This document shows positions 17,567 to 39,767 of a stretch of 39,767 nucleotides of DNA, piece after piece. How positions within the stretch are numbered: position 1 is the first letter of the stretch; every line of letters starts with the position of its first letter. The translations under genes were made by a program, and so were the position numbers. The notes beneath the pieces are model-generated. The model had not been told where the DNA came from. It saw nothing but the letters and a program-made list of their open reading frames with translations, and made no database searches. Source of the DNA: a phage; sequence record PV935351.1, one strand, 5' to 3'.

Positions 17567-17580
17567 CTGTAGGAGGGACT

Positions 17581-17805: not shown

Positions 17806-17809
17806 GACA

Positions 17810-18455: not shown

Positions 18456-18466
18456 GGAGGTGACTA

Positions 18467-20053: not shown

Positions 20054-20131
20054 TAGACAAGATTCGCAAAGCATTAGGCCGGGTGAGACTCCCGGTCGGT
20101 TCCTATCATCAACTTAAAGGAGAATGACTCA

Positions 20132-21016: not shown

Positions 21017-21017
21017 G

Positions 21018-21040
21018 ACTAAACTATCACTATAGGGAGA
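21018..21040 (+). promoter_or_regulatory. phage RNAP promoter for the major capsid gene (phi10-like)
   Basis: CTAAACTATCACTATAGGGAGACC; +1 to +8 GGGAGACC as in T7 phi10; leader stem GGGAGACC / GGTTCCCC; RBS AGGAGA...CATATG. Confidence 0.9.
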
Positions 21041-21142
21041 CCAAGAGAAAGACTCAAGGTTCCCCTATTACTTCAGTCCATACGGATTGGGCGTACAGTA
21101 AGTAATATACTTTATCTTTCAATTGAATAGGAGAATTATCAT

Positions 21143-22186: not shown

Positions 22187-22317
22187 GCACCTTTAGCCAA
22201 CCTAACGTCGCTACAGTAGCGGCTGTACCTGAAGAGGAGACTCTAACTCCTCAACAGAAAGCTGCGCGTACTCGTGCTGCGAACAGGGCCGCTAAACTGG
22301 CTGAGTCCAACAACTAA
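22165..22317 (+). CDS. 10: C-terminal extension of minor capsid protein 10B, reached by programmed -1 frameshift
   Basis: GGTTTTC (22165-22171), 5 codons before the 10A stop; the -1 frame stays open for 48 codons to TAA at 22315-22317. Confidence 0.6.
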   Translation, partial: GFQSSVVSTFSQPNVATVAAVPEEETLTPQQKAARTRAANRAAKLAESNN

Positions 22318-22321
22318 TTGA

Positions 22322-22361
22322 AACCCCTTGGGTGCCTTCGGGTGCTTGAGGGGTTTTTTTG
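22322..22361 (+). terminator. late terminator (Tphi-like)
   Basis: AACCCCTTGGG...CTTGAGGGGTTTTTTTG; GC-rich hairpin plus U7 tract, close to recalled T7 Tphi. Confidence 0.85.
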
Positions 22362-22373
22362 CTTAAAGTGAGG

Positions 22374-22469
22374 ATGATTATGTTTTACTTACTTACAGCC
22401 TTGGGACTATTTGTTAGTTTCTGGGCGATTATATTATTAACCGGACCATGCAGTCCTTACGACAGATAG
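22374..22469 (+). CDS. hypothetical small hydrophobic peptide between Tphi and gene 11
   Basis: 31 aa MIMFYLLTALGLFVSFWAIILLTGPCSPYDR; GTGAGGATG RBS; one predicted TM helix. Confidence 0.35.
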   Translation: MIMFYLLTALGLFVSFWAIILLTGPCSPYDR

Positions 22470-22477
22470 GAGGGAGT

Positions 22478-23044
22478 ATGGCTCAATACATTCCACTGAA
22501 TGCTAACGATGACTTAGACGCTATCAACGATATGTTAGCTGCTATCGGTGAACCGGCAGTCCTACAGCTTGACGAGGGGAACGCTGACGTCTCGAACGCC
22601 CAACGTATCCTGCATCGTGTCAATCGTCAGGTCCAAGCTAAAGGCTGGAACTTTAACATCAACGAAGCTGCTGTCCTGACACCTGATGTCCAAGACAATA
22701 GGATTCGATTCTTGCCGTCATACCTTCGTGTAATGACCGCTGGGGCCACCAGCTACTACAGCAACATGGGTGGATACCTGTACGACCTGTCCACTCAGTC
22801 GACCACTTTCACCGACCCTATCACGGTAGAGCTTGTGGAGATGAAGCCATTCTCAGAGATGCCTGTGGTCTTCAGGGACTACATCGTCACTAAAGCTAGC
22901 CGTGAGTTCAACGCTAAGTTCTTCGGTAGCCCAGAGTCTGAACTGTACCTTCGTGAGCAGGAAGCAGAACTCTATCAGCAGGTCATGGAATACGAGATGG
23001 ATACTGGTCGCTACAACATGATGTCCGACATTGGGAGAGACTAA
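22478..23044 (+). CDS. 11: tail tubular protein A
   Basis: 188 aa from ATG 22478 (AGGAGGGAG RBS); GEP, VMTAGATSYYSNMGGYLYD, IVTKASREFNAKFFG, EYEMD match recalled T7 gp11. Confidence 0.93.
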   Translation: MAQYIPLNANDDLDAINDMLAAIGEPAVLQLDEGNADVSNAQRILHRVNRQVQAKGWNFNINEAAVLTPDVQDNRIRFLPSYLRVMTAGATSYYSNMGGYLYDLSTQSTTFTDPITVELVEMKPFSEMPVVFRDYIVTKASREFNAKFFGSPESELYLREQEAELYQQVMEYEMDTGRYNMMSDIGRD

Positions 23045-25401: not shown

Positions 25402-25408
25402 CTTATTG

Positions 25409-25458
25409 AAGGGCCTATAGATTTACCTTAACTATCACTATAGGGACTATAGGCCCTT
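25409..25458 (+). other. 12-bp perfect inverted repeat enclosing the gene 13 promoter (candidate RNase III site)
   Basis: AAGGGCCTATAG (25409-25420) / CTATAGGCCCTT (25447-25458), 26-nt loop containing promoter positions -17 to +3. Confidence 0.6.
25426..25448 (+). promoter_or_regulatory. phage RNAP promoter
   Basis: CCTTAACTATCACTATAGGGAC, +1 G at 25443. Confidence 0.8.
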
Positions 25459-25477
25459 AAGGTTATAAGGAGACTTT

Positions 25478-25954
25478 ATGTATATTCGCAAGGCTACGGA
25501 ACCAGATGTCCACTACTTTCTGCGGCATCTTTCAGCAGATGATGTTAATGAGTGCAAAGCAAACTACGGGTCAACCGTTGGTCTCTCTGAAAGACTGCTT
25601 AAGCACCTATCTCCGTCATCTGTGGTTTTAACGAACGGTGTAGGCGAAGTGTTTGCCTATGGTGGAAACCAAGGGGATAACGTATGGTTCTTGACTTCTG
25701 GTCTTGTCTATAAGCTGAGACCTAAAGAGAAGCGAGAGTTCATAAAGCGTATCTCTGAGTACAGGGACTTAATGTTAGACCAATACGGGACCATCTGGAA
25801 CTACGTGTGGTCAGGCACTAAGTCTCACATTAAATTCTTGAAGTTGCTTGGGGCTAAGTTCCATGATGATTGGACTGTAAGTCCGGTAACTGGTGAGCGT
25901 TTTCAACTATTCACTATCTCTAAGGAGGACGTATGTGCGAGCCAATTAGCATAG
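25478..25954 (+). CDS. 13: internal virion protein, gp13 position
   Basis: 158 aa; assigned by synteny between genes 12 and 14; GGAG RBS. No motif matched from memory. Confidence 0.7.
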   Translation: MYIRKATEPDVHYFLRHLSADDVNECKANYGSTVGLSERLLKHLSPSSVVLTNGVGEVFAYGGNQGDNVWFLTSGLVYKLRPKEKREFIKRISEYRDLMLDQYGTIWNYVWSGTKSHIKFLKLLGAKFHDDWTVSPVTGERFQLFTISKEDVCASQLA

Positions 25955-26520
25955 GCATGGGTGTACTGTCTGTAGCCGGGGCCACTATGTCCGCATCCCA
26001 GCAGGCCAAGGCCGAAGGTGCAGCAATTGACGCTCAGAACCGACAGGCTCAGGAAATGGTTAAGCAGATGAACTACTCTGACGCCAACCTGAAGATGCAG
26101 GAGCGAGACCTGAAGGAGCAGCAGATGGCTGAACTGACAGAGACAACGCTCAACGGTATCCGCAATCAGGGTATGGTCAGAGCTGCGGTGGCTGAGTCCG
26201 GTCTGGAAGGTAACTCTATGGACAGGATTGAACGTCAGGTAGAAGGAGATACCGTCAAAGAGCGGGCAGGGATTACCGAAAGTTACAACCGCGACTATGC
26301 GGCTATCTTCGGGAACCGTATCGCCAACATTGAGAACACCAAGTCTGCTATCCGTGGTCAAGGTAAAATCATCAAGACCAGCCCACTGGCCCATGCACTT
26401 AATGTTGCTAACGCCGGGATGCAAGGTTACGCCGCTGGTAAGTCAATCTCTGGAGCGTCCAGCTCTGGTGGTGCTGCACCAATTAGTGCTGCTAAAGGCA
26501 CACCTACAGGTCATAGCTAA
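25933..26520 (+). CDS. 14: internal virion protein B
   Basis: 195 aa; MC start, LEGNSMDRIERQVEG, NYNRDYAAIF, ISAAKGT resemble recalled T7 gp14. Confidence 0.9.
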   Translation: MCEPISIGMGVLSVAGATMSASQQAKAEGAAIDAQNRQAQEMVKQMNYSDANLKMQERDLKEQQMAELTETTLNGIRNQGMVRAAVAESGLEGNSMDRIERQVEGDTVKERAGITESYNRDYAAIFGNRIANIENTKSAIRGQGKIIKTSPLAHALNVANAGMQGYAAGKSISGASSSGGAAPISAAKGTPTGHS

Positions 26521-26531
26521 GAGGAGGACTA

Positions 26532-28814
26532 ATGGCTAGTAATATTGAATCAGCTCTGGCTAATCGTACTATGGGTCGTGGCAGAGCGCCGGGTAAAGCT
26601 ATCGCCGTAAACTATCAAGCAGCCAGCGTTCAGGCTCCGACTGGGGACTCCGGTCTGGCTCGTGCGTTAACCAACTTCGTTGAGTCCGGGACTGGATTGT
26701 ACAAGCAGTTCAAGGACGAGGAGAAGACCAGAGCTGACGAGCGGTCTAACGAGATTATCCGTAAACTGACACCTCAGCAAAGACGTGAGGCTATCCAGAA
26801 CGGAACACTGCTGTATCAGGACGACCCTTACGCTATGGAAGCACTTCGAGTCAAGACAGGTCGTAACGCTGCCTTTGCGGTGGATGACGAGATTAACGTT
26901 AAGATTCAGAACGGTGAGTTCCGTACACGTCAGGACATGGAAGAGTATCGCCACCAGCGACTTCAGGACGCCGCTAAGTCCTATGCTGAAGAGGCGGGTA
27001 TCAACCCTACAGACGAGTTCTTCCAGCGTGGGTTCAACGATAACATCACAGACCGCAACATCGCTATCTATGGGTCTTTCAATAAGTATTTCAGCAAGCA
27101 GTCTGAAGAGACAGCAATGTTGAACACTCGTATTGAGATGAACTCATTCCTGAACGATGGCGACCTGATGCGTTCACCTGAGTCTGGCAAGACATTCACG
27201 GCCTACCTTCGTGATGGACTGACTACTGCTGCTATACCCTCGGACCAGCGAGCGCGGGAGGTCATTACCCAGACGGTCCGTGACGCAATCCAGAAGTCAG
27301 GCGGCTCAAACTTCCTACAGCAAGTCCGTGGCGAGCGTATCACCCTTAACGGTGTTGACGCTACCATCGAAGAGATTGTAGGACCTGACGTCTTCAATGC
27401 TGCTATGGTTGAGGCCCAAGGTACTGAGTATAAACTGGTGGCTAAGTATCAGGAAGACTTGTCGTTAGGTGTTCAGTCTGCAATTCTTCAGGATGACCCA
27501 ACCATCGGTCTGGCCCAGATTCAGAAACTCAAGGAGCAGAACAACCTGCTTCAGCCGGGTGAAGAACTAACGCCTCAGCGTCAGATGCTTATTAATGCCG
27601 AAGCCAGCTTACTGGAAGCGGTCAAGCGTAAGTCCGCTGAACAGGCTAAGGAGAACACTAAGTTAATCCAGACCCAGAACAAGCAACTTGTCATCGACCA
27701 AGTGTATCAGCGACGTCTGGCTGGAGACAACGTGTCCACCAACTATGAGGACCTTCCGGTCTCTGAAGCCACAGGAGAGTTCAAGCGTTCAGACATGAAC
27801 AACTATGCGTCTTCTAAGCTACAGCAGATTGACCAGATGGACATCCCTGAGGCTGCTAAGGACGCCCAGAAGGTGGCATTGTTAAGAGCTGACACTAACA
27901 ACGGTCCGTTCCGTAATGCCTTCCAGACGCTTACTCAGGACGCCGCTGGTGAGTGGCAAGCTGCTGTCATCCGTGGACAGTACGACCCAGACAAGATGAA
28001 ACGCTTCGAGTCTCTTCGTCGTGCCTACACTCAGGACCCTTCAAGTTTCGCTGCTCTGTATCCTGACCAAGCTCAGTTGTTCTCTACGTTCGACCAGATG
28101 GACAAGATGGGTCTGGACCCTCAGACGATGATTGAAGCTGATAAGCAAGCTGCAAGTCAAAGCCGCGAGATGCGCATGGAGTCAGACAAGGCGTGGCAGG
28201 AGTTGAAGAACGACTCCAAGAACACCCAGTTGTCTCGCCTCCCAACGTCTCTGGACTCAAGTGCTCGTAAGGTCTGGGACTCATGGTACTATCGTACAGG
28301 TAACGCTGACGCTGCAACGCAGCAGACTCAACGCTGGCTGAATGAGAACACCGTAACGTTCCAGTCTGAAGGTTCTGATGGTAAGTCAATCGGCATGGTG
28401 TCCAAGCACCAGCTTATGGTCGGGGATAACCCAGAGTCGTGGCAGGTTGGTCGAGACATTATAGACACCGCCCGTAAGCAGCTCATTAAGACCAACCCTT
28501 GGGTAGTGAACTCTCAGTTGTCCGTTGTTGAACAGAACGGATCTATCTTCCTCCAAGACGCTACAGGGACTATTCGTATTCGCTACGATAAAGAACTTGT
28601 AGGTAAACTCTACCGCGAACAACAGCAGAAGGCACAAGATGCCGCATACGCTCAGGCAGAACGTGACGCTAACAAGCGAGCGCGTATCGTCGGGACTAAA
28701 GCTGCCGGTGACAAACGTCGAGCTGACCGAGAGGCCAACATCGAGAAGCGCGGAGGGATGTACAATGACGTCTCATTGGAGGGTATCGCAAACGTACTAA
28801 TCGGTAAGGAGTAA
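26532..28814 (+). CDS. 15: internal virion protein C
   Basis: 760 aa; size and position of T7 gp15 (747 aa); GAGGAGG RBS. Confidence 0.9.
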   Translation: MASNIESALANRTMGRGRAPGKAIAVNYQAASVQAPTGDSGLARALTNFVESGTGLYKQFKDEEKTRADERSNEIIRKLTPQQRREAIQNGTLLYQDDPYAMEALRVKTGRNAAFAVDDEINVKIQNGEFRTRQDMEEYRHQRLQDAAKSYAEEAGINPTDEFFQRGFNDNITDRNIAIYGSFNKYFSKQSEETAMLNTRIEMNSFLNDGDLMRSPESGKTFTAYLRDGLTTAAIPSDQRAREVITQTVRDAIQKSGGSNFLQQVRGERITLNGVDATIEEIVGPDVFNAAMVEAQGTEYKLVAKYQEDLSLGVQSAILQDDPTIGLAQIQKLKEQNNLLQPGEELTPQRQMLINAEASLLEAVKRKSAEQAKENTKLIQTQNKQLVIDQVYQRRLAGDNVSTNYEDLPVSEATGEFKRSDMNNYASSKLQQIDQMDIPEAAKDAQKVALLRADTNNGPFRNAFQTLTQDAAGEWQAAVIRGQYDPDKMKRFESLRRAYTQDPSSFAALYPDQAQLFSTFDQMDKMGLDPQTMIEADKQAASQSREMRMESDKAWQELKNDSKNTQLSRLPTSLDSSARKVWDSWYYRTGNADAATQQTQRWLNENTVTFQSEGSDGKSIGMVSKHQLMVGDNPESWQVGRDIIDTARKQLIKTNPWVVNSQLSVVEQNGSIFLQDATGTIRIRYDKELVGKLYREQQQKAQDAAYAQAERDANKRARIVGTKAAGDKRRADREANIEKRGGMYNDVSLEGIANVLIGKE

Positions 28815-28818
28815 CATA

Positions 28819-31800
28819 ATGGCGACTCGTGGTATTCGCAATAACAATCCTGGTAATATACGGGTAAGTAAGGACCAATGGGAAGGAATGACTGGAGATG
28901 ATGGCGCCTTCGTCACCTTCGATAGTCCAGAGTCTGGCGTCCGAGCTTTAGGTAAAAACCTGCTGTCCTACGGTCGCCAAGGTTATGACTCCATCGAGAA
29001 GATTATCAACCGATGGGCACCTCCTAACGAGAACGAAACTAAGGCTTATATTGACTCAGTGGTGGCTGCAACTGGTATTCCAGCTACCCAGAGTCTCGAC
29101 CTATCGAACCCGGACACCCTGTCTTCTCTGGCTCAAGCTATCAGCTTCCATGAGACAGGCTCCCGGTACGACCCTGAAGTCTATCAGAAGGGAGTCGCAC
29201 GAGCACTCAATGGCATTAGCCCAAAGACTCCACCAGTAAGCGCTAACGTATTTGACGCACTCACGGAAGGACTCAAGGCTAAACCTAAAGTAGCTCTTGG
29301 CGAGAACCTTCCGACCGCTGCTGGTCTAAACATTGAGGGTCAAGCACCTGAAGCTCCCAACGAATCGTTCGGTGAGATGTTCTATAAGTCTACTGGCGAG
29401 ACCATGCAGGAACGAGAGGATCGCTCTACGTGGTTCGGTTTCGGCTCGGCTACAGAAGCTGAAGTGAAGAACTCTATGGTCGGCGTGGCTATCCGCGCTG
29501 GTCAGACCGAGGACTCACTTGATGTCATTGGCGATGTGTTCAACCCTACCCGCTGGAACAACCATAAGTGGTCTCGTGAGGAGCTGGACCAGATTCGTAA
29601 CGCTGGAGTTCTCCCTCAGTATTACGGTGTCATTACTGGTGGCTCCCCTCAGAACCTGACCGAGCTTATTAACTTAGCGCTTGAGAACCAGAAGTTGGAC
29701 CAAGAGAAGGCCAAGGCTGGGACTGGTGCTCAGTTAGCTGCTGGTGTGATTGGCGCTGGTGTGGACCCTCTGACCTACGTTCCTATCGCTGGACAGATTG
29801 GTAAGGGTGGCAAGCTGGTCAACAAGATGTTCACCGTGGCTGCTCAATCTGGAGCACTTGCTGGTGTATCAGAGATGGCCCGTACCTCAGTGGCTGGTGG
29901 TGATGCTCATGTGGCTGAGGCTATCCTTGGCGGTGCTCTCTTCGGTGGCGGTATGACTGCTATCGCTGATGGCTTAGGCAGAGCCTTAGGCCGTAACACT
30001 AACGAGTTCGCTGGACCAGCCACACGTCTGGAAGCTCGTGAGACAGCCCGTAACGTTGATGGTCAGGACCTGTCTCGTCTACCTATTCAAGAAGGTGAGG
30101 AGACCTTTAGTTATCAAGGCGTTAAGTTCGCTGACGTTCCGAATGAGCCGGGTAGTGTACGACTGGAAGATGGTTCAATCCTGATTGGTGAAAACCCTCT
30201 GAACCCTAAGACACGTCAAGTCTTTGACGAAGTGATTGAGCCTGAACGGGCCGCTGCGGGTGTGAACCTTGGTGGTCTGACTGAGATTGGCCTGAAGCTG
30301 CTTCGGTCTGAGAACCCTGAGATTCGTGGAGTAGCTTCTGACTTAGTGCGTTCACCAACTGGTATGCAGTCTGGGGCCTCAGGTAAAATCGGGACCACTG
30401 CGTCTGACGTATTCGAGAGACTTCGTGCTGTTGACCATCGGTTCTACAACGACATCGACGATGCGGTTACTGAGGCACTGAAGGACCCGTACTTCCAGAC
30501 AGCATTCTGGCGAGACTCTGGAGCATTCCGTCAGGACATCTACCAGCGCGTGTCTATGGCTATCGAAGATGGCAGCGGAAACCTGAAGGCTGAACTGACT
30601 CCGGGAGAACTGAAAGTCTATGACCTGCTGAAGAACCAGTTTGACGCCAAGCGTGAGATGATGGAGAACCCGGCGATGTTTGGTCGTCCAGACGCTCAGT
30701 CTATCTTTCCGGGTAGCCGCTTCAAGGGAACCTACGTCCCTCATGTGTATAGCAAACAGATGAAGGAGCTGTACACCAAGGAGCTTGGGAGTCCAGAGGC
30801 GTTGCAGGAGGCCATCAAGAAGTCATGGTTGACCAGCTATGCGTCTCGACCTGAAGTCAAGAAACGCGTGGACGAGGCACTCTTAGAGTCTGACCCTACG
30901 TTGACTCCAGAGGGACTTGCTGCTGCGGTCGATAAGTACGCCAACGATAAGGCTTACGGTATCTCCCACACCGAGCAGTTCGAACGTTCATCCGTAATGG
31001 AAGAGAACATCAACGGTCTGGTTGGTCTGGAGAACAACAGCTTCCTTGAGGCTCGTAACCTGTTCGATAGCGATATGTCAATCGTCCTACCTAACGGTCA
31101 GACCTTCAGTGTCAACAACCTGCGTGAGTGGGACATGGACAAGATTGTCCCGGCCTACAACCGTCGAGTTAATGGCGATATTGCTATCATGGCTGGTACA
31201 GGCAAAACCACGAAGGACATGAAGGACTTGGTTGAGACCATGATGAACAAGGCTGGGGATGACGGTAAGTTGAAAGGTGAAGTATCTACCTTACGTGACA
31301 CCTTGAAGATTCTAACTGGTCGTGCTCGACGTGATGGTGCTGACGATGCAGCCTTCGCTACCGTGATGCGCACAATGACAGACCTATCGTTCTTCGCTAA
31401 GAATGCCTACATGGGTGTTCAGAACTTAACGGAGATTGGTGGTATGCTGGCTCGTGGCAACGTTCGTGCAATGCTGCATGGAGTCCCGATTTTCCGTGAC
31501 CTAGCCTTCCGTAACAAGAAGGTTGGGGCCTCAGAGATTAAGGACCTGCACAATGTTATCTTCGGTAAGGAACTGGATGACTCAATCCGTCCGTCTAAAC
31601 AGGATGTCATTGACCGTCTGCGATCTTACAGTGACCTCGGTCGTGGTACAGCTACAGCTCTGGGGACTGCCAAGTATTACACTGGCGAACTTGCAGTACG
31701 CTCTCCGTTCACTAAAGTCCTCAACGGTACGACCAACTACCTGTTAGATGCTGGACGTCAAGGCTTCCTGTCTGACATCGTTGAGCATAGCCTGACTGGT

Positions 31801-32706
31801 AGTAAGCGTAAGTTCGATGACCGCTGGCTGAAGACCGCTGGTATATCTGACGAGCAGTGGAATGGCATTAAGTCCCTAATCCGTGAGTCAGTGACTCGTG
31901 GTCCAGACGGGAAGTACACCATCAAGGATAAGAAGGCGTTCAGTCAGGACCCAAGGGCTATGGACCTATGGCGTATGGGTGATACCATCGCTGACGAAAC
32001 GTTACTACGTCCTCATAAGCTGTCCAACATGGACGCAAAGGCTTATGGTCCTATCGCTAAGACTGTCCTTCAGTTTAAGAACTTCGTCATCAAGTCCATC
32101 AATGGGCGAACCATGCGTACCTTCTATAACGCCACGAAGAACAACCGAGCGATTGACGCTGCACTATCGACCGTGATGTCTATGGGTCTGGCTGGTATCT
32201 ACTACATGGCTCAGGCGCACGTCAAGGCTTATGCTATGCAGGATGGTCGAGACCGTGACTACCTTAAGCAAGCTCTGGACCCGACGATGATTGGTTATGC
32301 GGCTCTGTCCCGTAGTTCACATCTGGGTGGACCACTTGGGGTAGCTAACATTCTGGGTGGCATCGCTGGGTATGAGGACACTAAGATGCTCCGTTCGTCT
32401 ATCCTACCTCGTTCGCCCACAGAGAAGCCTGAACGTGCCATCGCGTATGGTGCAGCTACAAGTGACCCTGTGATGAATGTTGTTGGTAACTTCTTGGAGC
32501 AGGTTCCAGCTTTCGGATATGCTGCTAACGTTGGTGCTTCGGCTTATAACTTGGCTGGCTACCTGAAGGCCGACACTCGGGTAAACGAGCGAGACTACAT
32601 GACCGGGATGTATAACACCTTCCGTGAACTGGTTCCGAACGACCCGATTACTCAGAAGTTGCTACTGGGAACGTTTGAGGAGCAAGGTATCCACATCAAG
32701 GACTAA
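28819..32706 (+). CDS. 16: internal virion protein D (ejection core) with a non-T7-type N-terminal domain
   Basis: 1295 aa; from about residue 200 collinear with recalled T7 gp16 (TWFGFG, VRSPTGMQSGASGK, RPEVKKRVDE, MPAYDRRVNGDIAIMG, LSRSS); the N-terminal 130 aa lack the T7 transglycosylase TESRF motif. Confidence 0.93.
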   Translation: MATRGIRNNNPGNIRVSKDQWEGMTGDDGAFVTFDSPESGVRALGKNLLSYGRQGYDSIEKIINRWAPPNENETKAYIDSVVAATGIPATQSLDLSNPDTLSSLAQAISFHETGSRYDPEVYQKGVARALNGISPKTPPVSANVFDALTEGLKAKPKVALGENLPTAAGLNIEGQAPEAPNESFGEMFYKSTGETMQEREDRSTWFGFGSATEAEVKNSMVGVAIRAGQTEDSLDVIGDVFNPTRWNNHKWSREELDQIRNAGVLPQYYGVITGGSPQNLTELINLALENQKLDQEKAKAGTGAQLAAGVIGAGVDPLTYVPIAGQIGKGGKLVNKMFTVAAQSGALAGVSEMARTSVAGGDAHVAEAILGGALFGGGMTAIADGLGRALGRNTNEFAGPATRLEARETARNVDGQDLSRLPIQEGEETFSYQGVKFADVPNEPGSVRLEDGSILIGENPLNPKTRQVFDEVIEPERAAAGVNLGGLTEIGLKLLRSENPEIRGVASDLVRSPTGMQSGASGKIGTTASDVFERLRAVDHRFYNDIDDAVTEALKDPYFQTAFWRDSGAFRQDIYQRVSMAIEDGSGNLKAELTPGELKVYDLLKNQFDAKREMMENPAMFGRPDAQSIFPGSRFKGTYVPHVYSKQMKELYTKELGSPEALQEAIKKSWLTSYASRPEVKKRVDEALLESDPTLTPEGLAAAVDKYANDKAYGISHTEQFERSSVMEENINGLVGLENNSFLEARNLFDSDMSIVLPNGQTFSVNNLREWDMDKIVPAYNRRVNGDIAIMAGTGKTTKDMKDLVETMMNKAGDDGKLKGEVSTLRDTLKILTGRARRDGADDAAFATVMRTMTDLSFFAKNAYMGVQNLTEIGGMLARGNVRAMLHGVPIFRDLAFRNKKVGASEIKDLHNVIFGKELDDSIRPSKQDVIDRLRSYSDLGRGTATALGTAKYYTGELAVRSPFTKVLNGTTNYLLDAGRQGFLSDIVEHSLTGSKRKFDDRWLKTAGISDEQWNGIKSLIRESVTRGPDGKYTIKDKKAFSQDPRAMDLWRMGDTIADETLLRPHKLSNMDAKAYGPIAKTVLQFKNFVIKSINGRTMRTFYNATKNNRAIDAALSTVMSMGLAGIYYMAQAHVKAYAMQDGRDRDYLKQALDPTMIGYAALSRSSHLGGPLGVANILGGIAGYEDTKMLRSSILPRSPTEKPERAIAYGAATSDPVMNVVGNFLEQVPAFGYAANVGASAYNLAGYLKADTRVNERDYMTGMYNTFRELVPNDPITQKLLLGTFEEQGIHIKD

Positions 32707-32724
32707 ACTATCACTATAGGAAAC
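32702..32724 (+). promoter_or_regulatory. phage RNAP promoter for the tail fibre gene
   Basis: CTAAACTATCACTATAGGAAAC, +1 G at 32719; overlaps the gene 16 stop. Confidence 0.8.
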
Positions 32725-32771
32725 TGGAGGCGCTACCATAGGTCTCCTTTTAATTCATAACAGGAGGCATA

Positions 32772-35700
32772 ATGTCCACGATTACACAATTCCCTTCAGG
32801 AAACACTCAGTACAGGATTGAGTTCGACTACCTAGCCAGAACGTTTGTGGTTGTTACGCTGGTGAATAGCTCTAACCCTACCATGAACCGTGTACTGGAA
32901 GTTGGTCGAGATTACCGATTCCTTAATCCAACGATGATTGAGATGTTGGTTGACCAATCAGGTTTCGACATCGTTCGTATTCACCGTCAGACTGGAACTG
33001 ACTTAGTGGTAGACTTCAGGAATGGCTCAGTGTTGACAGCTAGTGACCTGACCAATTCAGAGCTTCAGGCTATCCATATTGCAGAAGAAGGTCGAGACCA
33101 AACGGTTGACTTAGCGAAGGAATATGCCGATGCTGCTAGTAGCTCTGCTGGCAACGCTAAGGATAGCGAGGACGAAGCACGACGAATCGCTGAGAGTATC
33201 AGGGAAGCTGGTCTAATTGGCTATATTACCCGTCGCTCCTTCGAGAAAGGCTACAACGTTACAACATGGAGCGAGGTCCTGCTATGGGAAGAGGATGGTG
33301 ATTATTACCGCTGGGATGGTACGCTTCCAAAGAACGTTCCTGCTGGTTCAACTCCTGAAACTTCCGGTGGGATTGGATTAGGTGCGTGGGTTAGTGTTGG
33401 TGATGCTGCTTTAAGAAGTCAGATTTCAAACCCGGAGGGGGCAATACTCTACCCTGAATTACATAGAGCACGCTGGCTTGATGAAAAAGATGTGCGTGGT
33501 TGGGGTGCTAAAGGGGATGGTGTCACTGATGATACAGCAGCGTTAACGAGCGCATTAAGCGCCACACCTGTTGGACAAAAGGTTAATGGCAATGGGAAGA
33601 CATATAAGGTCACATCACTTCCTGACATTAGTCGCTTCATCAACACTCGTTTCGTTTATGAGCGCATTCCCGGACAACCTCTTTATTATGCCTCTGAAGA
33701 ATTTGTTCAGGGTGAGCTATTCAAAATAACTGACACCCCTTATTACAATGCGTGGCCTCAGGATAAAGCGTTCGTATATGAGAATGTGATATATGCACCT
33801 TACATGGGTAGCGATCGTCATGGTGTTAGTCGTCTGCATGTATCATGGGTTAAGTCTGGTGATGACGGTCAAACATGGTCTACTCCAGAGTGGTTAACTG
33901 ATCTGCATCCAGATTACCCTACAGTGAACTATCATTGTATGAGTATGGGTGTATGTCGCAACCGTCTGTTTGCCATGATTGAAACACGTACTTTAGCCAA
34001 GAACGCATTAACCAATTGTGCATTGTGGGATCGCCCCATGTCTCGTAGCCTGCATCTTACTGGTGGTATCACTAAAGCTGCAAATCAGCAATATGCAACA
34101 ATACATGTACCAGACCACGGACTATTCGTTGGTGATTTTGTTAACTTCTCTAATTCTGCGGTAACAGGTGTCTCCGGTGACATGACTGTTGCAACCGTAA
34201 TAGATAAGGACAACTTCACGGTTCTTACACCCAACCAGCAGACTTCAGATTTGAATAACGCTGGAAAGAATTGGCACATGGGTACTTCTTTCCATAAGTC
34301 GCCATGGCGTAAGACAGACCTTGGTCTAATCCCTCGTGTCACAGAGGTGCATAGCTTTGCTACTATTGATAACAATGGCTTTGTTATGGGTTATCATCAA
34401 GGCGATGTAGCTCCATGCGAAGTTGGACTTTTCTATTTCCCTGACGCTTTCAATAGCCCATCTAGTTATGTTCGTCGTCAGATACCATCTGAGTATGAAC
34501 CAGATGCGTCAGAGCCGTGCATCAAGTACTATGACGGTGTATTATACCTTATCACTCGTGGCACTCGTGGGGATAGACTGGGTAGCTCTTTGCATCGTAG
34601 TAGAGACATAGGTCAGACTTGGGAGTCGCTGAGATTTCCACATAATGTTCATCATACTACATTACCTTTTGCTAAAGTAGGGGATGACCTTATTATGTTT
34701 GGTTCAGAACGTGCAGAAAATGAATGGGAAGAAGGTGCGCAAGATGATCGTTACAAGGCATCTTATCCTCGCACCTTCTATGCACGCTTGAATGTAAACA
34801 ATTGGAATGCAGACGATATTGAATGGGTTAACATCACTGACCAGATTTATCAGGGCGGAATAGTTAACTCAGGTGTAGGCGTTGGTTCGGTAGTTGTGAA
34901 GGATAGTTACATCTACTACATGTTTGGTGGAGAGGACCATTTTAACCCATGGTCATATGGAGATAACTCAGCGAAGGATCCATTCAAAGCAGATGGTCAT
35001 CCCTCAGATTTGTATTGCTACAAAATGAAGATTGGCCCAGACAATCGTGTTTCAAGGGATTTCAGGTATGGTGCTGTACCTAACAGAGCTGTTCCCGTGT
35101 TTTTTGATACGAATGGGATTCGCACTGTTCCTGCGCCAATTGAATTTACAGGGGATTTAGGTTTAGGTCATGTGACCATTAGAGCCAGCACCAGTAGTAA
35201 CATTCGCTCTGAAGTTTTAATGGAAGGTGAATATGGGTTTATCGGAAAATCTATACCGACTGATAACCCGGCAGGGCAGCGCACTATATTTTGCGGAGGC
35301 GACAGTACCAGTTCTTCTTCTGGTGCACAGATTACGCTTTATGGTGCAAATAACACCGACTCAAAGCGAATAGTTTACAATGGTGCTGAGCATCTGTTCC
35401 AGACTGCTGACGTTAAGCCTTATAACGATAACGTCACTGCGCTTGGTGGGCCTAGCAACCGTTTCACCACTGCATACCTCGGAAGCAACCCTATTGTTAC
35501 TTCTAACGGGGAGAGGAAAACAGAGCCGGTAGTTTTTGATGATGCTTTCCTTGATGCCTGGGGTGATGTTCACTACATCATGTACCAGTGGTTGGATGCT
35601 GTTCAACTGAAAGGCAATGATGCTCGTATTCACTTCGGTGTTATTGCTCAGCAAATTCGTGATGTATTCATTGCGCATGGTCTGATGGACGAAAACAGTA

Positions 35701-35966
35701 CGAATTGTCGTTATGCTGTTCTGTGCTATGACAAGTATCCACGGATGACCGATACGGTATTTTCGCACAATGAAATCATTGAACACACTGACGAGGAGGG
35801 TAATGTCACTACTACGGAAGAACCTGTATACACCGAGGTGGTTATTCACGAAGAGGGTGAGGAGTGGGGTGTTCGGCCTGACGGAATTTTCTTTGCTGAA
35901 GCCGCTTATCAGAGAAGAAAACTGGAAAGAATCGAAGCCAGACTTTCTGCTCTTGAACAGAAGTAA
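32772..35966 (+). CDS. 17: tailspike endosialidase (endo-N-acetylneuraminidase) with gp17-like N-terminal adaptor and C-terminal chaperone domain
   Basis: 1064 aa; N-terminus MSTITQFPSGNTQYRIEFDYLARTF... is gp17-like; two Asp-boxes SGDDGQTW and SRDIGQTW; matches the endoNF precursor of phage K1F as I recall it; AT-richer from about 33420. Confidence 0.92.
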   Translation: MSTITQFPSGNTQYRIEFDYLARTFVVVTLVNSSNPTMNRVLEVGRDYRFLNPTMIEMLVDQSGFDIVRIHRQTGTDLVVDFRNGSVLTASDLTNSELQAIHIAEEGRDQTVDLAKEYADAASSSAGNAKDSEDEARRIAESIREAGLIGYITRRSFEKGYNVTTWSEVLLWEEDGDYYRWDGTLPKNVPAGSTPETSGGIGLGAWVSVGDAALRSQISNPEGAILYPELHRARWLDEKDVRGWGAKGDGVTDDTAALTSALSATPVGQKVNGNGKTYKVTSLPDISRFINTRFVYERIPGQPLYYASEEFVQGELFKITDTPYYNAWPQDKAFVYENVIYAPYMGSDRHGVSRLHVSWVKSGDDGQTWSTPEWLTDLHPDYPTVNYHCMSMGVCRNRLFAMIETRTLAKNALTNCALWDRPMSRSLHLTGGITKAANQQYATIHVPDHGLFVGDFVNFSNSAVTGVSGDMTVATVIDKDNFTVLTPNQQTSDLNNAGKNWHMGTSFHKSPWRKTDLGLIPRVTEVHSFATIDNNGFVMGYHQGDVAPCEVGLFYFPDAFNSPSSYVRRQIPSEYEPDASEPCIKYYDGVLYLITRGTRGDRLGSSLHRSRDIGQTWESLRFPHNVHHTTLPFAKVGDDLIMFGSERAENEWEEGAQDDRYKASYPRTFYARLNVNNWNADDIEWVNITDQIYQGGIVNSGVGVGSVVVKDSYIYYMFGGEDHFNPWSYGDNSAKDPFKADGHPSDLYCYKMKIGPDNRVSRDFRYGAVPNRAVPVFFDTNGIRTVPAPIEFTGDLGLGHVTIRASTSSNIRSEVLMEGEYGFIGKSIPTDNPAGQRTIFCGGDSTSSSSGAQITLYGANNTDSKRIVYNGAEHLFQTADVKPYNDNVTALGGPSNRFTTAYLGSNPIVTSNGERKTEPVVFDDAFLDAWGDVHYIMYQWLDAVQLKGNDARIHFGVIAQQIRDVFIAHGLMDENSTNCRYAVLCYDKYPRMTDTVFSHNEIIEHTDEEGNVTTTEEPVYTEVVIHEEGEEWGVRPDGIFFAEAAYQRRKLERIEARLSALEQK

Positions 35967-36099
35967 TAAACAAACCCTTTTGCCCTTAAGTTGGTTGGGT
36001 AGATGTTAGAAGGTTGGGGGAGGTAGAGGCTAACTACACACTAACCAACGTATGTAACAACTTTGGGTCATGGACGACCCGCTTTAAACTGGAGGTTTT

Positions 36100-36297
36100 A
36101 TGATTGAGTTAGACTTCAAGAATGAGGTCCTTAAAGCCTCTCCTATCGTCGGGACCGCTGCGGCTGATGGTGCCAGTCGGTTCTTCTTCGGACTTACGCT
36201 GAACGAATGGTTCTACGTTGCAGCTATCGCGTACACCGTTGTCCAGATTGGTGTGCTAGTCTACAAAACGATTAAAGGAGGCGGTGGTAAAACATGA
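36100..36297 (+). CDS. 17.5: holin
   Basis: 65 aa; FFFGLTLNEWFYVAAIAYTVVQIG nearly identical to recalled T7 gp17.5. Confidence 0.93.
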   Translation: MIELDFKNEVLKASPIVGTAAADGASRFFFGLTLNEWFYVAAIAYTVVQIGVLVYKTIKGGGGKT

Positions 36298-36557
36298 CGC
36301 AGATGGACTTAGAGAAGTTCCTCTTAATGCTAGATACTGAACGTGCTCGACTCATGCTGCAAGACCTGCGGGATGACACTAAGCGTTCACCTCAGCTCTA
36401 CAACGCCATTGAGAAGCTGCTTGCTCGTCACAACTTTGTGTTAAGCAAGGTGTCTGTTGACGAGAAGACGCTCGCTGATATGGAGGCCCTTAACGCAGAG
36501 TACGATAAGGTGCTCTCCGCTACGGAAGATAATGACACCGGGTATGGTGTTCAATAA
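36294..36557 (+). CDS. 18: terminase small subunit
   Basis: 87 aa; size and position of T7 gp18. Confidence 0.85.
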   Translation: MTQMDLEKFLLMLDTERARLMLQDLRDDTKRSPQLYNAIEKLLARHNFVLSKVSVDEKTLADMEALNAEYDKVLSATEDNDTGYGVQ

Positions 36558-36561
36558 GTGT

Positions 36562-36611
36562 TAGACTCAAGGTCATTACTATATGTAGTGGCCTTTATGG
36601 TTAACACTAAC
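36562..36611 (+). ncRNA. conserved structured RNA element, copy C (candidate RNase III site)
   Basis: TAGACTCAAGGTCAT, 11 variable nt, GTGGCCTTTATGGTTAACACTAACT; sits where T7 has the R18.5 site. Confidence 0.6.
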
Positions 36612-36658
36612 TAGTGGAGGCGACTCTACGTGAAATCTGATAAACCGGGAGGGCAACT

Positions 36659-37108
36659 ATGCTCGAATTTTTAAAGAGAGCGGCTCCGTGGTTACTTGCA
36701 GCAGTGATGTTTGCTGGTGGCTACCACACCGCTAACAATAAGTGGGAGGCTAAGGTCAATGCAGAATACACCTCGAATCTTAAGGCATCGGAAGATACAA
36801 GGCTTGCTGTCCAAGCTGAAGTCAACAAAGTGTCCAAACGGTTTCAGGACGAAATGTCCTCGCTGGAAGGCAGCACTGATAGGATTATTGCTGACCTTAA
36901 GTCTGACAATAAGCGGCTGCTCATCCGAGTCAAACCTACGAGTGGAACCACGCAAAGTGACGGTCGATGCTTCATTGATGGTTACGCCGAACTTGACGAA
37001 CGAGATGCTAAACGTCTTATCACCATCGGAGTGAAAGGAGACAAGTGGATTAAGGCCCTTCAAGACACTGTGATAGCCTTACAGCAAGAGAAGGAGGTGA
37101 CGCATTGA
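36659..37108 (+). CDS. 18.5: i-spanin (Rz-like)
   Basis: 149 aa; N-terminal TM helix ([14 protein letters not shown]), coiled-coil periplasmic region. Confidence 0.9.
36759..37034 (+). CDS. 18.7: o-spanin (Rz1-like lipoprotein) embedded in the +1 frame of gene 18.5
   Basis: About 91 aa; lipobox LTISGC; PRWKAALIG...SGC..SES...VDASLMV.PNLT.EMLNV matches recalled T7 gp18.7. Confidence 0.85.
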   Translation: MQNTPRILRHRKIQGLLSKLKSTKCPNGFRTKCPRWKAALIGLLLTLSLTISGCSSESNLRVEPRKVTVDASLMVTPNLTNEMLNVLSPSE

Positions 37109-38868
37109 GTAAAGACTTAGTGGCGCGTCAGGCGCTAATGACTACCCGTATGAAGGCAGACTTCGTGTTCTTCCTGTTCGTCCTGTGGAAAGCTCTTAGC
37201 CTACCAGTACCAACCAGATGCCAGATAGATATGGCCCGCAAGCTATCGGCTGGGGACAACAGGCGTTTCATCCTACAGGCGTTCCGTGGTATCGGGAAGT
37301 CCTTCATTACGTGTGCATTCGTAGTCTGGAAACTATGGAACAACCCAGACTTGAAGTTCATGATTGTGTCGGCCTCAAAGGAACGAGCCGATGCGAACTC
37401 CATCTTCATCAAGCGAATCATCGACCTCATGCCTCAGCTTCGGGAACTCAAACCTAAGCAGGGGCAGCGAGATGCGGTTATCAGCTTCGACGTTGGACCA
37501 GCCAAGCCAGACCACTCACCTTCGGTTAAGTCCGTTGGTATCACTGGTCAGTTGACTGGTAGTCGTGCTGACCTCCTGATTGCCGATGACGTGGAGGTTC
37601 CAAACAACTCGGCGACTCAGGCTGCACGAGACCGTCTGTCAGAGCTTGTAAAAGAGTTCGACGCTATCCTGAAGCCGGGAGGTACAATCATCTATCTGGG
37701 TACTCCTCAGAACGAGATGACCTTATATCGTGAGCTGGAAGGCCGTGGATACACCACTACCATCTGGCCCGCTCGCTACCCACGCGATAAGAAGGACTGG
37801 CAGTCTTACGGCGACCGTCTGGCACCGATGCTTCAGGCAGAGCTTGAAGAGGACCCTGAGTCCTTCTACTGGCGTCCGACAGATGAAGTACGATTCGATG
37901 ATACGGACCTGAAGGAACGTGAGCTGTCCTATGGTAAAGCTGGCTTCGCTCTACAGTTCATGCTTAACCCGAACCTGAGTGATGCTGAGAAGTACCCTCT
38001 GAAGCTCCGTGACCTTATCGTAGCCGACTTGGACCCAGCGTCTAGCCCAATGGTATACCAATGGCTTCCTAACCCTCAGAACAAGCGTGAGGACGTTCCT
38101 AACGTTGGACTCATGGGTGACTCATACCACACGTATCAGACTGTAGGTTCTGCCTTCAGTTCGTACACCCAGAAGATTCTGGTCATTGACCCTAGTGGTC
38201 GTGGTAAGGATGAAACTGGCTATGCGGTACTATATCAGCTCAACGGCTACATCTTCGCTATGGAAGTTGGAGGTATGCGTGGTGGTTATGAGGACTCTAC
38301 GCTGGAAGCCTTGGCTAAGATTGGTCGTAAGTGGAAGGTCAACGAATACGTCATTGAGGGTAACTTCGGTGATGGTATGTACCTTGAGCTATTCAAGCCT
38401 GTAGCTGCCCGTATCCATCCTGCGGCTGTAACTGAAGTGAAGAGTAAGGGTCAGAAAGAACTCCGCATCTGTGACGTTCTGGAGCCTATCATGGGGTCTC
38501 ACCGACTTATCGTCAACGCTGCTGCTATCGTCCAAGACTACCAGACAGCCTCTGACAAGGATGGTGTGCGTAACCCTATCTACTCTCTCTTCTACCAGAT
38601 GACCCGTATCTCTCGTGAACGTGGAGCCTTGGCACACGATGACCGACTTGATGCGCTGGCTATCGGTGTACAGTTCTTCGTTGAGTCTATGGCTAAGGAT
38701 GCCAACAAAGGCGAACGTGAAGTCACTGAGGAGTGGCTGGAGGAACAGATGGAGAATCCACGGAAAGGCTTCGAGTCCATCCACACTGAGTTCTGGGACA
38801 ATGGGGTCCGGGTAACTCACGATACGGACGACGAGCTGGGACTAGGGTCCTACGTTACGTTCCACTAG
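37105..38868 (+). CDS. 19: terminase large subunit
   Basis: 587 aa from TTG 37105 (AAGGAGG RBS); [82 protein letters not shown] match recalled T7 gp19. Confidence 0.97.
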
Positions 38869-38877
38869 CTGAATGAA

Positions 38878-38926
38878 TAACTATAGGCGAAAGCTGCATG
38901 AATAAGCAGTTAGTAACCTATAGTTA
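38878..38926 (+). other. 10-bp perfect inverted repeat downstream of gene 19
   Basis: TAACTATAGG (38878-38887) / CCTATAGTTA (38917-38926), 29-nt spacer; the arms resemble the promoter 3' half (ACTATAGG). Confidence 0.5.
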
Positions 38927-38962
38927 CTACCAGTCTAACCTACTGTTTTATAAGGAGTTTGG

Positions 38963-38985
38963 ACTTAACTATCACTATAGGGAAG
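38963..38985 (+). promoter_or_regulatory. phage RNAP promoter near the right end (phiOR-like)
   Basis: CTTAACTATCACTATAGGGAAG, +1 G at 38980. Confidence 0.8.
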
Positions 38986-39165
38986 ACCCCCGGTTACTTA
39001 TAGTATTACTGTAGTGAATATACATATGCAGACTTTATGCAAGACCTTAGGAGGCAGACTCCGAGTTCTTACCTAAGGCTTGCACCGATGGAAGGAGGGT
39101 GATATTAATCATAATCCCTCCAATACAGATAGTCACCGACCATAGATACAGGAGGTATGTAGCAT

Positions 39166-39324
39166 ATGGCAAAGACCAAAGCTGTACTTAAAGCTCTGGC
39201 GACCAATCGAGCTACATACAGGTTTCTTGCTGCTGTTCTACTTGCTGCTGGCGTTACTGCTGGAAGTCAGTGGGTCGGGTGGGTCGAGACTCTCGTATGT
39301 TCTCTGGTGTCTCAGTGTAATTAA
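39166..39324 (+). CDS. 19.5: gp19.5-like small membrane protein
   Basis: 52 aa; TYRFLAAVLLAAG...SLVSQCN resembles recalled T7 gp19.5; AGGAGG RBS. Confidence 0.7.
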   Translation: MAKTKAVLKALATNRATYRFLAAVLLAAGVTAGSQWVGWVETLVCSLVSQCN

Positions 39325-39357
39325 CGCAATCATGGTAACGATTCATGAGCGGAAGAC

Positions 39358-39399
39358 CTAAGGTCAGTACGTGGATACAGACCCACTCTACTGACCTTA
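39358..39399 (+). other. 12-bp perfect inverted repeat near the right end
   Basis: CTAAGGTCAGTA (39358-39369) / TACTGACCTTAG (39388-39399), 18-nt spacer; about 165 bp left of the right DTR. Confidence 0.6.
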
Positions 39400-39486
39400 G
39401 CTACTGTAGTCAAGGACTTTAGGTAACACCTTAAGAGAAGCTCACTTAGGGTCATCCTACTTATTGGTCTATCCTAGTGTCGCCTG

Positions 39487-39526
39487 ACCTACGGTCCTTG
39501 ACCTACAGTGGCTGAGGCCTACAGTA
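39487..39526. repeat. short repeat array just inside right DTR
   Basis: ACCTACGGTC (39487-39496), ACCTACAGTG (39501-39510), CCTACAGTA (39518-39526); same motif and orientation as the left-end array. Confidence 0.75.
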
Positions 39527-39563
39527 GTGACGATGAGTTTTGGACCAAAAGTTTGAGACCACA

Positions 39564-39767
39564 TCTCACAGTTCAAGAACCTCAAGTCTCCCCCCCTAGG
39601 CCCTCTTTCAGTCCAGACCAAAGGCCCTACCCATTACTGCTCCTTGCAGTCACAGCCAGTCTATCATAAGGTTGGACCGATGGTCAAGACGTTAGGTCGA
39701 CGATAGGTCTAGGCTATGGCTTAGGGAAGGACGATAGGTAGAGGCTATAGGTCTTCTTTGAGTCTCT
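39564..39767. repeat. right direct terminal repeat (DTR)
   Basis: Identical to bases 1-204. Confidence 0.95.

Follow-up and report, generated by a model that had tools for sequence, protein, structure and literature searches.

We found that the open reading frame at the tail-fibre position of the phage sequence PV935351.1 is very probably gene 17 of a K1F-like Kayfunavirus, coding for an endosialidase tailspike of the endoNF type, and that its codon 549 specifies cysteine where every other endosialidase examined has arginine. Depolymerase activity of this copy is not assured, because the substitution (R549C) hits an invariant active-site arginine. Judging from the sequence, we lean toward the view that the encoded protein still binds polysialic acid but is much poorer than endoNF at cleaving it. 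Identification of an endoNF-type tailspike is in itself already known ground, and solved structures exist for the K1F protein. Among T7-type phages that have exchanged the tail fibre for a capsule depolymerase, K1F with its endosialidase tailspike is the textbook case, and a genome analysis, crystal structures and a deep mutational scan have been published. As a member of that class, gene 17 of PV935351.1 adds nothing new; the notable point is the cysteine at an otherwise invariant active-site arginine.

Genome context and identity of gene 17

The window, by which we mean the whole stretch of 39,767 nucleotides that was analyzed, is by nucleotide comparison and gene order a complete K1F-like Kayfunavirus genome (T7 relatives, Studiervirinae). 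Positions 20001-39767 were 95-97% identical to K1F-type and other Kayfunavirus genomes over 99-100% of their length, and positions 1-20000 were 92-95% identical over about 90%; genome-wide nucleotide similarity and gene order both place the phage within Kayfunavirus. The assembly has exact 204-bp terminal repeats of the T7 type and no ambiguous bases, and all large ORFs are intact. The possibility that the window represents phage PK1A2 was ruled out, as PK1A2 is K1E-like (Vectrevirus) and has an arginine at the position equivalent to 549.

The initial annotation had described an ORF of 1064 aa at this locus and had likened it in length and sequence to endoNF. Our ORF call, on the plus strand, agrees, and so does the comparison with K1F endoNF, from which the gene differs by 31 amino acids without indels (97.1% identity at both the nucleotide and the amino acid level). 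EndoNF is gp17 of coliphage K1F, a GH58 endosialidase represented by PDB entries 1V0E, 3GVK, 3GVL and 3JU4, with the C-terminal domain in 3GW6. The gene lies in the same slot as in K1F, between gene 16 and the holin gene, in genomes that are 95-96% identical; its neighbors are those of the annotated K1F record, with gp16 upstream and the holin gp17.5 and gp18 downstream. Directly upstream of it is one of the 12 copies of a direct-repeat family, about 10 of which contain the core ACTATCACTATAGG. From its T7-type TATAGG core and its position, we infer that this copy is a phage promoter. When the surroundings of gene 17 were scanned for sigma-70 promoters and intrinsic terminators, the counts equaled those expected from shuffled sequence. 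Coordinates of all features are collected in the table.

Table. Observed and predicted features in and around gene 17 of PV935351.1 (positions in the window; aa, residues of the gene 17 protein).
Feature	Position	Strand	Evidence
Putative phage RNA-polymerase promoter (...ACTAAACTATCACTATAGGA...), immediately 5' of gene 17; overlaps the gene 16 end	32698..32727	+	12-copy direct-repeat family D1
Gene 17, predicted endosialidase tailspike precursor, 1064 aa + stop	32772..35966	+	ORF; 97.1% nt/aa identity to K1F gp17; K1F annotation
T7 gp17-like N-terminal tail-attachment domain, aa 10-120	32799..33131	+	Pfam PF03906, 58.4 bits (cutoff 25.2); PDB 7boz (T7 gp17), aa 6-115, E=1.8e-15
Tail_spike_N (TSP1/gp66-type), aa 156-211; end of genus-conserved adaptor block	33237..33404	+	Pfam PF18668, E=4.5e-19; PDB CBA120 TSP-type chains, aa 151-263
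Module-exchange junction zone, aa about 206-255	33389..33537	+	Comparative breakpoints
Endosialidase N-terminal extension, aa 246-312	33507..33707	+	Pfam PF12218, E=1.5e-37; crystallised endoNF construct starts here
Six-bladed beta-propeller catalytic domain, aa 313-754	33708..35033	+	Pfam PF12217, E=3e-219; Y325, H350, E581, R596, R647 conserved
Asp-box 1, SGDDGQTW, aa 362-369	33855..33878	+	Regex S.D.G.[TS]W on translation
Beta-barrel polysialic-acid-binding domain inserted in propeller, aa 424-506	34041..34289	+	Pfam PF12195, E=7e-48
Codon 549, TGC (Cys); Arg (CGA or CGC) in every other endosialidase examined	34416..34418	+	Alignments; SR04 comparison
Asp-box 2, SRDIGQTW, aa 610-617	34599..34622	+	Regex S.D.G.[TS]W on translation
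Triple-beta-helix stalk ("End_tail_spike"), aa 757-910	35040..35501	+	Pfam PF12219, E=4.7e-78
C-terminal intramolecular chaperone, aa 911-1064, predicted release before Ser911	35502..35963	+	PDB 3gw6, E=4e-181; Pfam PF13884, 36.2 bits (cutoff 22); K1F mat_peptide annotation

Domain organization and module exchange

Seven Pfam domains were found in the expected order, including all four endosialidase domains, and residues 245-910 matched PDB chains of endoNF (including 1v0e) at E=0. K1F endoNF has the same length, the same seven domains, both Asp-boxes and the same residues at E581, R596, R647, H350, Y325, S911 and K916; the first five of these were invariant in 32 homologues. The propeller with two Asp-boxes is that of a GH58 enzyme, as are the barrel insertion and the stalk, which in this family provide further sites for polysialic acid; R837 and Q853 are conserved. 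The cleavage motif T910-S911...K916 (IVT/SNGERK, with the slash at the cut) is the same as in K1F and its Ser911/Lys916 dyad is intact, while the C-terminal 154 residues, an auto-processing chaperone domain of the Peptidase_S74 (CIMCD) family, contain a single substitution relative to K1F (V1003I). The two Asp-boxes, the endoNF-like central region and the chaperone in the last 150 residues, all proposed in the initial annotation, were thereby recovered. Its description of the first 215 residues as T7 gp17-like was borne out in part: resemblance to gp17 extends over aa 6-120 (7boz, PF03906) and, together with the gene 17 slot, identifies an adaptor of the T7 gp17 type from aa 1 to about 120, whereas aa 156-211 form a different domain, Tail_spike_N.

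The mechanism that we propose, with every activity in it, is drawn by homology from the K1F protein, which has been studied structurally and biochemically. The C-terminal chaperone domain would assist trimerization of the spike and would then cut itself off at Ser911, and the N-terminal part resembling T7 gp17 (aa 1 to about 150) would attach the spike to the tail. Sites in the beta-barrel and the stalk would bind the alpha-2,8-polysialic acid of the K1 capsule, and the propeller active site, which in endoNF comprises Glu581, Arg596, Arg647, His350 and Arg549, would cleave the capsule and let the phage tunnel to the outer membrane. Going by the hosts of its relatives alone, the phage may be restricted to K1 hosts. 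Any phage that could be isolated and propagated was presumably infectious, and this speaks for some remaining activity of the spike or for an unusual host.

Comparison across phages indicates that gene 17 is a mosaic: residues 1 to about 211, or to about 249 in some relatives, are an adaptor common to the genus, and the catalytic-plus-chaperone cassette attached to it is found also in unrelated families. Within the gene, identity falls off sharply at nt 618-625 in the comparison with LM33_P1 and the Kayfunaviruses of Salmonella Typhi and at nt 746 in that with ZG49. The first 900 nt of the gene matched 172 phage records, with sharp ends at nt 587, 633-654 and 759-766, and many Kayfunaviruses with other spikes had only nt 1-633 or 1-759 in common. 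The proteins behave in the same way, as Kayfunavirus spikes are alike over aa 1 to about 211 (about 249 in some) and then diverge. LM33_P1, ZG49 and the Salmonella Typhi phages (CHRF_10022 among them) share with PV935351.1 the gene position, the genome chassis and an adaptor that is 90-100% identical up to residue 211 or so (249 or so in ZG49), but past the junction their shorter spikes, of 671-726 aa, have receptor-binding or depolymerase modules of unrelated kinds and no endosialidase domains. With endosialidases from unrelated phage families, the alignments start at points from aa 141 to aa 235 (aa 235 for UE-S5b), and the same catalytic cassette occurs behind other N-termini in Schitoviridae (UE-S5b), in Shuimuvirus (IME207), in SP6-like proteins of 811 aa and in P22-like spikes, presumably of prophages. 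It is because of these comparative breakpoints, and not of base composition, that we consider the enzymatic module to have been horizontally acquired on a T7-family chassis, a conclusion that the initial annotation had also reached. The junction maps cleanly across many phages, which may be useful for the engineering of chimeric spikes.

The compositional argument that had been offered for this acquisition did not hold. The N-terminal part had been described as using the GC-rich codons typical of the genome, but ten large genes had a GC3 of 0.561 and aa 1-211 one of 0.445 (p=0.001, Fisher test). The ORF had further been said to become visibly AT-richer from about nt 33420, with many GAT, ATT, TTA and AAA codons; the shift in GC3 at this point is weak (0.445 before and 0.376 after, p=0.07), and the four codons make up 9.0% before it and 10.1% after it (p=0.70). 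Change-point tests of total GC, GC3 and synonymous-codon log-odds within the ORF gave nothing significant, with an LLR of 2.2 against a mean of 2.2 and a maximum of 7.3 in codon shuffles, and p=0.12 for GC3. The strong compositional break lies where the gene begins (LLR 17, near 32647), and gene 17 as a whole, N-terminus included, is rich in AT at third positions, its GC3 of 0.39 being the lowest among the genes of the genome. Composition alone therefore fails to place the exchange junction, and we dropped it as evidence for an internal module boundary in favor of the comparative breakpoints.

A cysteine at the position of Arg549

All 32 diverse endosialidases compared, the most distant at 30% identity, and all 17 K1F-type proteins have Arg549, and the PV935351.1 spike departs from the 49 invariant columns of the catalytic domain at this position only. 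We regard the loss of an arginine that is invariant in GH58 active sites as a point mutation in a protein that clearly belongs to the family, and not as a ground for exclusion. Phage SR04 has the same sequence over 34302-34508 (207 nt) except for a C at 34416, and by this comparison R549C is a recent, derived, single C-to-T change on an allele shared with SR04. Degenerate 41-nt patterns for the Cys549 codon had no match in viral_contigs and metagenome_contigs, where the Arg-codon controls had 5 and 3; none of 62 phage records retrieved by blastn with a 61-nt query had Cys549 or was identical to it, and the exact gene 17 protein was absent from a collection of 15 billion proteins. Among the 31 substitutions relative to K1F, 23 fall in the catalytic part, including R549C itself as well as A654E and P657Q, which lie just past the active-site residue R647 and are unprecedented in all compared sequences. 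A cluster in the binding region of the stalk at aa 838-850 (I838T, E844D, G845S, T849S and T850S) belongs to a segment nearest to that of phiYIO1-1.

The spike may be a catalytically crippled, lectin-like binder of polysialic acid and the phage a PK1A2-like host-range variant, a reading we put forward tentatively and from the protein sequence. Such a spike would adsorb to the K1 polysaccharide and would be unable to tunnel through a full capsule, which would suit K1 strains that are sparsely encapsulated or in the capsule-off phase. The invariance of R549 points this way, as does a deep mutational scan preprint, where R549, H350, E581, R596 and R647 are described as catalytic or sialic-acid-binding and "highly intolerant to substitution" (PMC12632334). 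A recent single C-to-T change fits a mutation gained during isolation or propagation, and with A654E and P657Q there are two more changes without precedent beside R647. There is also a precedent for a viable phage whose endosialidase binds but is inactive, namely mutPK1A2, which grows on EH954, a host with reduced capsule (PMC5715158). That binding-only mutant is altered elsewhere, however, at positions equivalent to 627, 699 and 819 of endoNF, and position 549 has no direct precedent. Single substitutions studied by Jakobsson in 2007 reportedly caused only partial loss of activity, which also speaks against a crippled enzyme.

Alternatively, Cys549 may be real but tolerated, leaving enough activity for a normal K1-dependent infection, although we consider this rather unlikely. 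The same preprint states that R549 tolerates "very few" substitutions, which is not none, and that the phage can do without K410, although this residue is essential in vitro (PMC12632334). All other active-site residues are intact, and neighboring basic residues or A654E/P657Q might compensate. Yet the change from arginine to cysteine leaves no charge and little of the side chain at a residue retained in even the most distant homologues compared, and A654E adds a negative charge, which is no replacement for the lost arginine. It is also conceivable, but distinctly improbable in our estimation, that the cysteine reflects a base-call error or a minority variant and that the actual spike is a fully active endoNF orthologue. 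A single base (T instead of C at 34416) sets the tract apart from that of SR04, the variant was found nowhere else in the collections searched, and propagation of a phage on a K1 host is difficult to reconcile with an inactive catalytic site. Against an error stand the finished appearance of the assembly, the context CCA[C/T]GCG, which contains no homopolymer and no Dam or Dcm site, and the small chance that a rare error would fall on one of few catalytic codons.

Relation to other endosialidases and possible consequences

The propeller, barrel, stalk and self-cleaving chaperone also occur together in K1E, K1-5 and PK1A (SP6-like, 811 aa), in UE-S5b (Schitoviridae, 1215 aa), in IME207 (Shuimuvirus, 976 aa) and in endosialidases of 981 aa with a P22-type head-binding domain (PF09008) from E. 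coli genome records, presumably prophages. These proteins are 65-94% identical to the PV935351.1 spike, and Arg549, E581, R596 and R647 are invariant among them. Each of these lineages has its own N-terminal attachment module, whereas the T7 gp17-like adaptor is found only in the K1F type and Cys549 in the PV935351.1 spike alone. EndoNA2 of PK1A2 resembles it in being a naturally arisen point-mutant endosialidase with propeller substitutions, and its example shows that, where the host capsule is reduced, a spike that only binds is enough for a K1 phage (PMC5715158). The two differ in that PK1A2 has a Vectrevirus (K1E-like) backbone, in that the PK1A substitutions H417Y, N489D and R614G are those corresponding to endoNF 627, 699 and 819, not 549, and in that the loss of activity was measured for EndoNA2 and is a prediction from sequence for the PV935351.1 spike.

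There is some chance, though we would put it below even, that PV935351.1 represents a phage whose endosialidase has become binding-only or strongly attenuated, in nature or in the laboratory, through the single change R549C. If the variant is both real and inactivating, anyone employing this phage or its spike to degrade the K1 capsule, be it for therapy, capsule stripping or the removal of polysialic acid, would obtain a binder and not an enzyme. The same change would offer a one-residue polysialic-acid probe or lectin on the endoNF scaffold. For the biology of these phages, R549C would be a previously undescribed route to lectin-like K1 tailspikes, and host range would move toward capsule-poor K1 variants.

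Identity and genomic setting of gene 17

Our results support the earlier interpretation of gene 17 as an endosialidase tailspike of the type found in coliphage K1F (endoNF), which is an already known feature. The ORF was found exactly as initially annotated. A comparison of its central region with endoNF structures had been proposed, and when PDB sequences were searched with phmmer, endoNF catalytic-domain chains (1V0E, 3GVL, and others) matched aa 245-910 with E=0, while the stalk-plus-chaperone structure 3GW6 matched aa 790-1064 (E=4e-181) and the T7 gp17 N-terminus matched aa 6-115 (E=1.8e-15). The identity with endoNF proposed at the outset was borne out at the DNA level as well, as K1F gene 17 is 97.1% identical with no indels. 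The 31 aa differences fall mostly in aa 246-910 (23), with 7 in aa 1-245 and a single one in the C-terminal domain. Both of the Asp-boxes claimed were located (aa 362-369 and 610-617; n=2), and Tyr325, His350, Glu581, Arg596, Arg647, Arg837, and Gln853 are kept. The reading of the C-terminal ~150 aa as a cleavable chaperone agrees with the 3GW6 match and with retention of the processing site between Thr910 and Ser911, with Lys916; the K1F record annotates gene 17 as a gp17 precursor that yields mature endoNF* and releases a C-terminal chaperone domain.

Features of gene 17 and its surroundings (window coordinates, or aa of gp17)
Feature	Position	Remarks
gp16-type internal virion protein	28819-32706	1295 aa; 5′ neighbor of gene 17
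Gene 17 ORF	32772-35966	+ strand; ATG start, 1064 codons
Codon 549	34416-34418	TGC (Cys)
Holin-like ORF	36100-36297	65 aa; 3′ neighbor of gene 17
Repeat-family copies (examples)	5586-5615, 7228-7257, 21014-21043, 32698-32727, 38959-38988
~50-nt conserved element	5605-5661, 12946-12966, 36556-36612
Phage_T7_tail	aa 10-120	Pfam
Tail_spike_N (PF18668)	aa 156-211	Pfam
End_N_terminal	aa 246-312	Pfam
End_beta_propel	aa 313-754	Pfam
End_beta_barrel	aa 424-506	Pfam; inserted in propeller
End_tail_spike	aa 757-910	Pfam
Peptidase_S74	aa 916-971	Pfam

The genome is K1F-like and complete (39,767 bp, 0 ambiguous bases), and because its 204-bp terminal direct repeats (1-204 and 39564-39767) are exact, we consider it a correctly terminated T7-type linear genome. 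Over 99-100% of its length, the right half shares 95-97% identity with K1F, phiHAO1-1, Mt1B1_P3, and others; for the left half, identity with Kayfunavirus genomes is 92-95% over ~90% of the length. The holin-like ORF is followed by the small terminase subunit, an Rz-like spanin, and the large terminase. A direct-repeat family with 12 copies spread over 2507-38988, about 10 of which have the T7-type promoter core ACTATCACTATAGG / CTAAACTATCACTATAGGA, presumably represents promoters recognized by the phage RNA polymerase; one copy lies directly upstream of gene 17 and overlaps the gene 16 stop codon. We also observed a ~50-nt conserved element (TTAGACTCAAGGTCAT...GTGGCCTT...) that occurs twice in full, the two copies being 85% identical, and once in part. 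The copy at 5605 closely follows a promoter copy on its downstream side, and that at 36556 is between genes 18 and 18.5, positions that resemble those of the T7 RNase III processing sites R1.1 and R18.5.

By homology, on which the whole mechanism rests, the promoter at 32698-32727 would drive late transcription of gene 17, and the C-terminal chaperone would nucleate folding of the precursor into a trimer before being freed at Ser911. Six trimers would be anchored to the tail via the gp17-like N-terminus, and polysialic acid would be held by barrel and stalk sites during hydrolysis by the propeller site.

Mosaic boundary and base composition

In all, 172 phage records matched the first 900 nt of gene 17, and the points at which the matches ended formed sharp clusters. 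In most Kayfunaviruses with other spikes, whose hosts include Salmonella Typhi, Enterobacter, Klebsiella, Citrobacter, and other E. coli serotypes, the match ends at nt 633-654; in a second group (ZG49, Vec13, and others) it ends at nt 759-766, and in a few records at nt 587. Protein comparison gave 90-100% identity to gp17 for LM33_P1 and a Typhi phage as far as ...GAWVSVGD (aa ~206-211), with unrelated sequence beyond, and the likeness of ZG49 runs to aa ~249. The alignment with the 1215-aa endosialidase of UE-S5b (N4-like) begins at aa 235 and extends through the C-terminus, and that with the 976-aa spike of IME207 (Shuimuvirus) begins at aa ~141. SP6-like 811-aa and phAPEC8-type 921-aa endosialidases have N-termini unlike that of gp17, and 981-aa endosialidases in E. 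coli genome records have a P22-type head-binding domain as N-terminus. Together, these comparisons show that the mosaic boundary is real and place the exchange zone at 33389-33537, a range that includes the initially proposed position of about 33420.

In ZG49 (NC_047777, 2601-5841), the gene-17 slot holds two consecutive tail-spike genes (686 and 386 aa), the first having aa 1 to ~249 in common with gp17. The K1F type has a single spike, whereas in ZG49 two spikes may form a branched arrangement.

While all of the sequence features in the initial annotation were present, its compositional details, namely a break inside the ORF near 33420 and an N-terminus using genome-typical GC-rich codons, did not hold. 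It is gene 17 in its entirety that is the genome's compositional outlier (GC 0.454 vs 0.499 genome-wide), with the lowest GC3 among 27 ORFs (0.39 vs 0.554 in other genes pooled), and across the gp16-gp17 region no change-point is stronger than the one at the start of the gene (~32647, LLR 17). Within gene 17, the best GC change-point (33577) reached an LLR of 2.2, which is also the mean among codon-shuffled controls (maximum 7.3), and change-points in GC3 (p=0.12) and codon preference (p=0.45) were not significant. GC3 of aa 1-211 (0.445) was significantly lower than the genome's 0.561 (p=0.001) and not significantly higher than that of aa 212-1064 (0.376, p=0.07); the four codons named as marking the AT-richer part made up 9.0% and 10.1% of these segments, respectively (p=0.70). 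GC seems to rise at 33000-33450, but codon choice is not the source: the rise is due to codon positions 1 and 2 in a linker rich in Ala, Gly, and Glu.

Probable recombination among K1F-type phages, and recorded hosts

The closest relative shifts along gene 17, from BUCT788 at the 5′ end to K1F (nt 901-1200), ASO2B (nt 1201-1800), and phiYIO1-1 (nt 2401-2700), a pattern pointing to homologous recombination that continues among K1 phages. A cluster of differences from K1F in the stalk (I838T, E844D, G845S, T849S, and T850S; aa 838-850, 35283-35321) suggests recombination between K1F-type phages, since the best match to the segment is phiYIO1-1 (98.3%, vs 92.7% for K1F). A 2025 deep mutational scan (PMC12632334) calls this stalk region an adaptive "tuning knob."

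We infer that the window phage depends on K1 hosts because the recorded hosts of its relatives are O18ac:K1:H7, UTI89, DSM 30083, and "K1 LU_100." The records "Acinetobacter phage vB_Aba_01KA" (PV615262.1) and "Enterococcus phage EFA-1" (MT350292.1) contain K1F-type gene 17 sequence (95-97% identity), the EFA-1 match covering the first 587 nt only, and the K1F-type phage LNA3 (MZ311862.1) has as its recorded host E. coli K-12 MG1655, without K1 capsule. These host names probably reflect mis-assignment or contamination in public records.

The Cys549 allele

Codon 549 is CGA in K1F and five relatives and CGC in BUCT788, ASO2B, Pipis, and SR04. In a MAFFT alignment, Arg549 was invariant across 32 other endosialidases, Mannheimia included, with identity down to ~30%, as were Tyr325, His350, Glu581, Arg596, and Arg647. 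The window gp17 departs from exactly one of the 49 invariant columns among the 665 of the catalytic domain (7.4%), its remaining 22 substitutions there all falling at variable columns. Arg549 was present in 17/17 other available full-length K1F-type proteins, and T at 34416 was shared by none of 62 matching phage records. Degenerate pattern scans of viral and metagenome collections, in which the denominator was small, gave 8 Arg versions and no Cys versions, and the exact window protein was not found in a 15-billion-sequence collection. A654E and P657Q (34731-34742), located 7-10 residues past the active-site Arg647, were absent from all 17 K1F-type and all 32 diverse endosialidases used for comparison.

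Since SR04 is identical over 207 nt (34302-34508) except for a C at 34416, Cys549 stems either from one C-to-T transition that is derived and recent or from a base-call error, and we consider it very likely that the T is real. The scan, performed on the K1F spike with E. coli EV36, classes R549 with H350, E581, R596, and R647 among catalytic or sialic-acid-binding residues "highly intolerant to substitution" (PMC12632334), a statement that concerns the residue R549 and not Cys specifically. If the T is real, cleavage would probably be reduced at least 10-fold.

A precedent for such a spike is PK1A2, a mutant phage with an endosialidase that binds and does not cleave polysialic acid, grown on a capsule-reduced host (PMC5715158). 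Because PK1A2 was propagated in this state, a binding-only K1 spike is biologically viable. Compared to the deposited wild-type PK1A gene (EF507428), mutPK1A2 (MG004687, 1216-3651) has H417Y, N489D, and R614G, equivalent to endoNF H627, N699, and G819; N699 is given as a newly recognized loss-of-function position in the 2025 scan (PMC12632334). Overall, PK1A2-like, binding-only behavior of the window phage is possible, though we lean against it. The Cys549 allele is the sole point of gene 17 that merits follow-up and, as mutPK1A2 keeps Arg at the equivalent position, unlike the window's Cys, R549C would be a different route to a binding-only spike.
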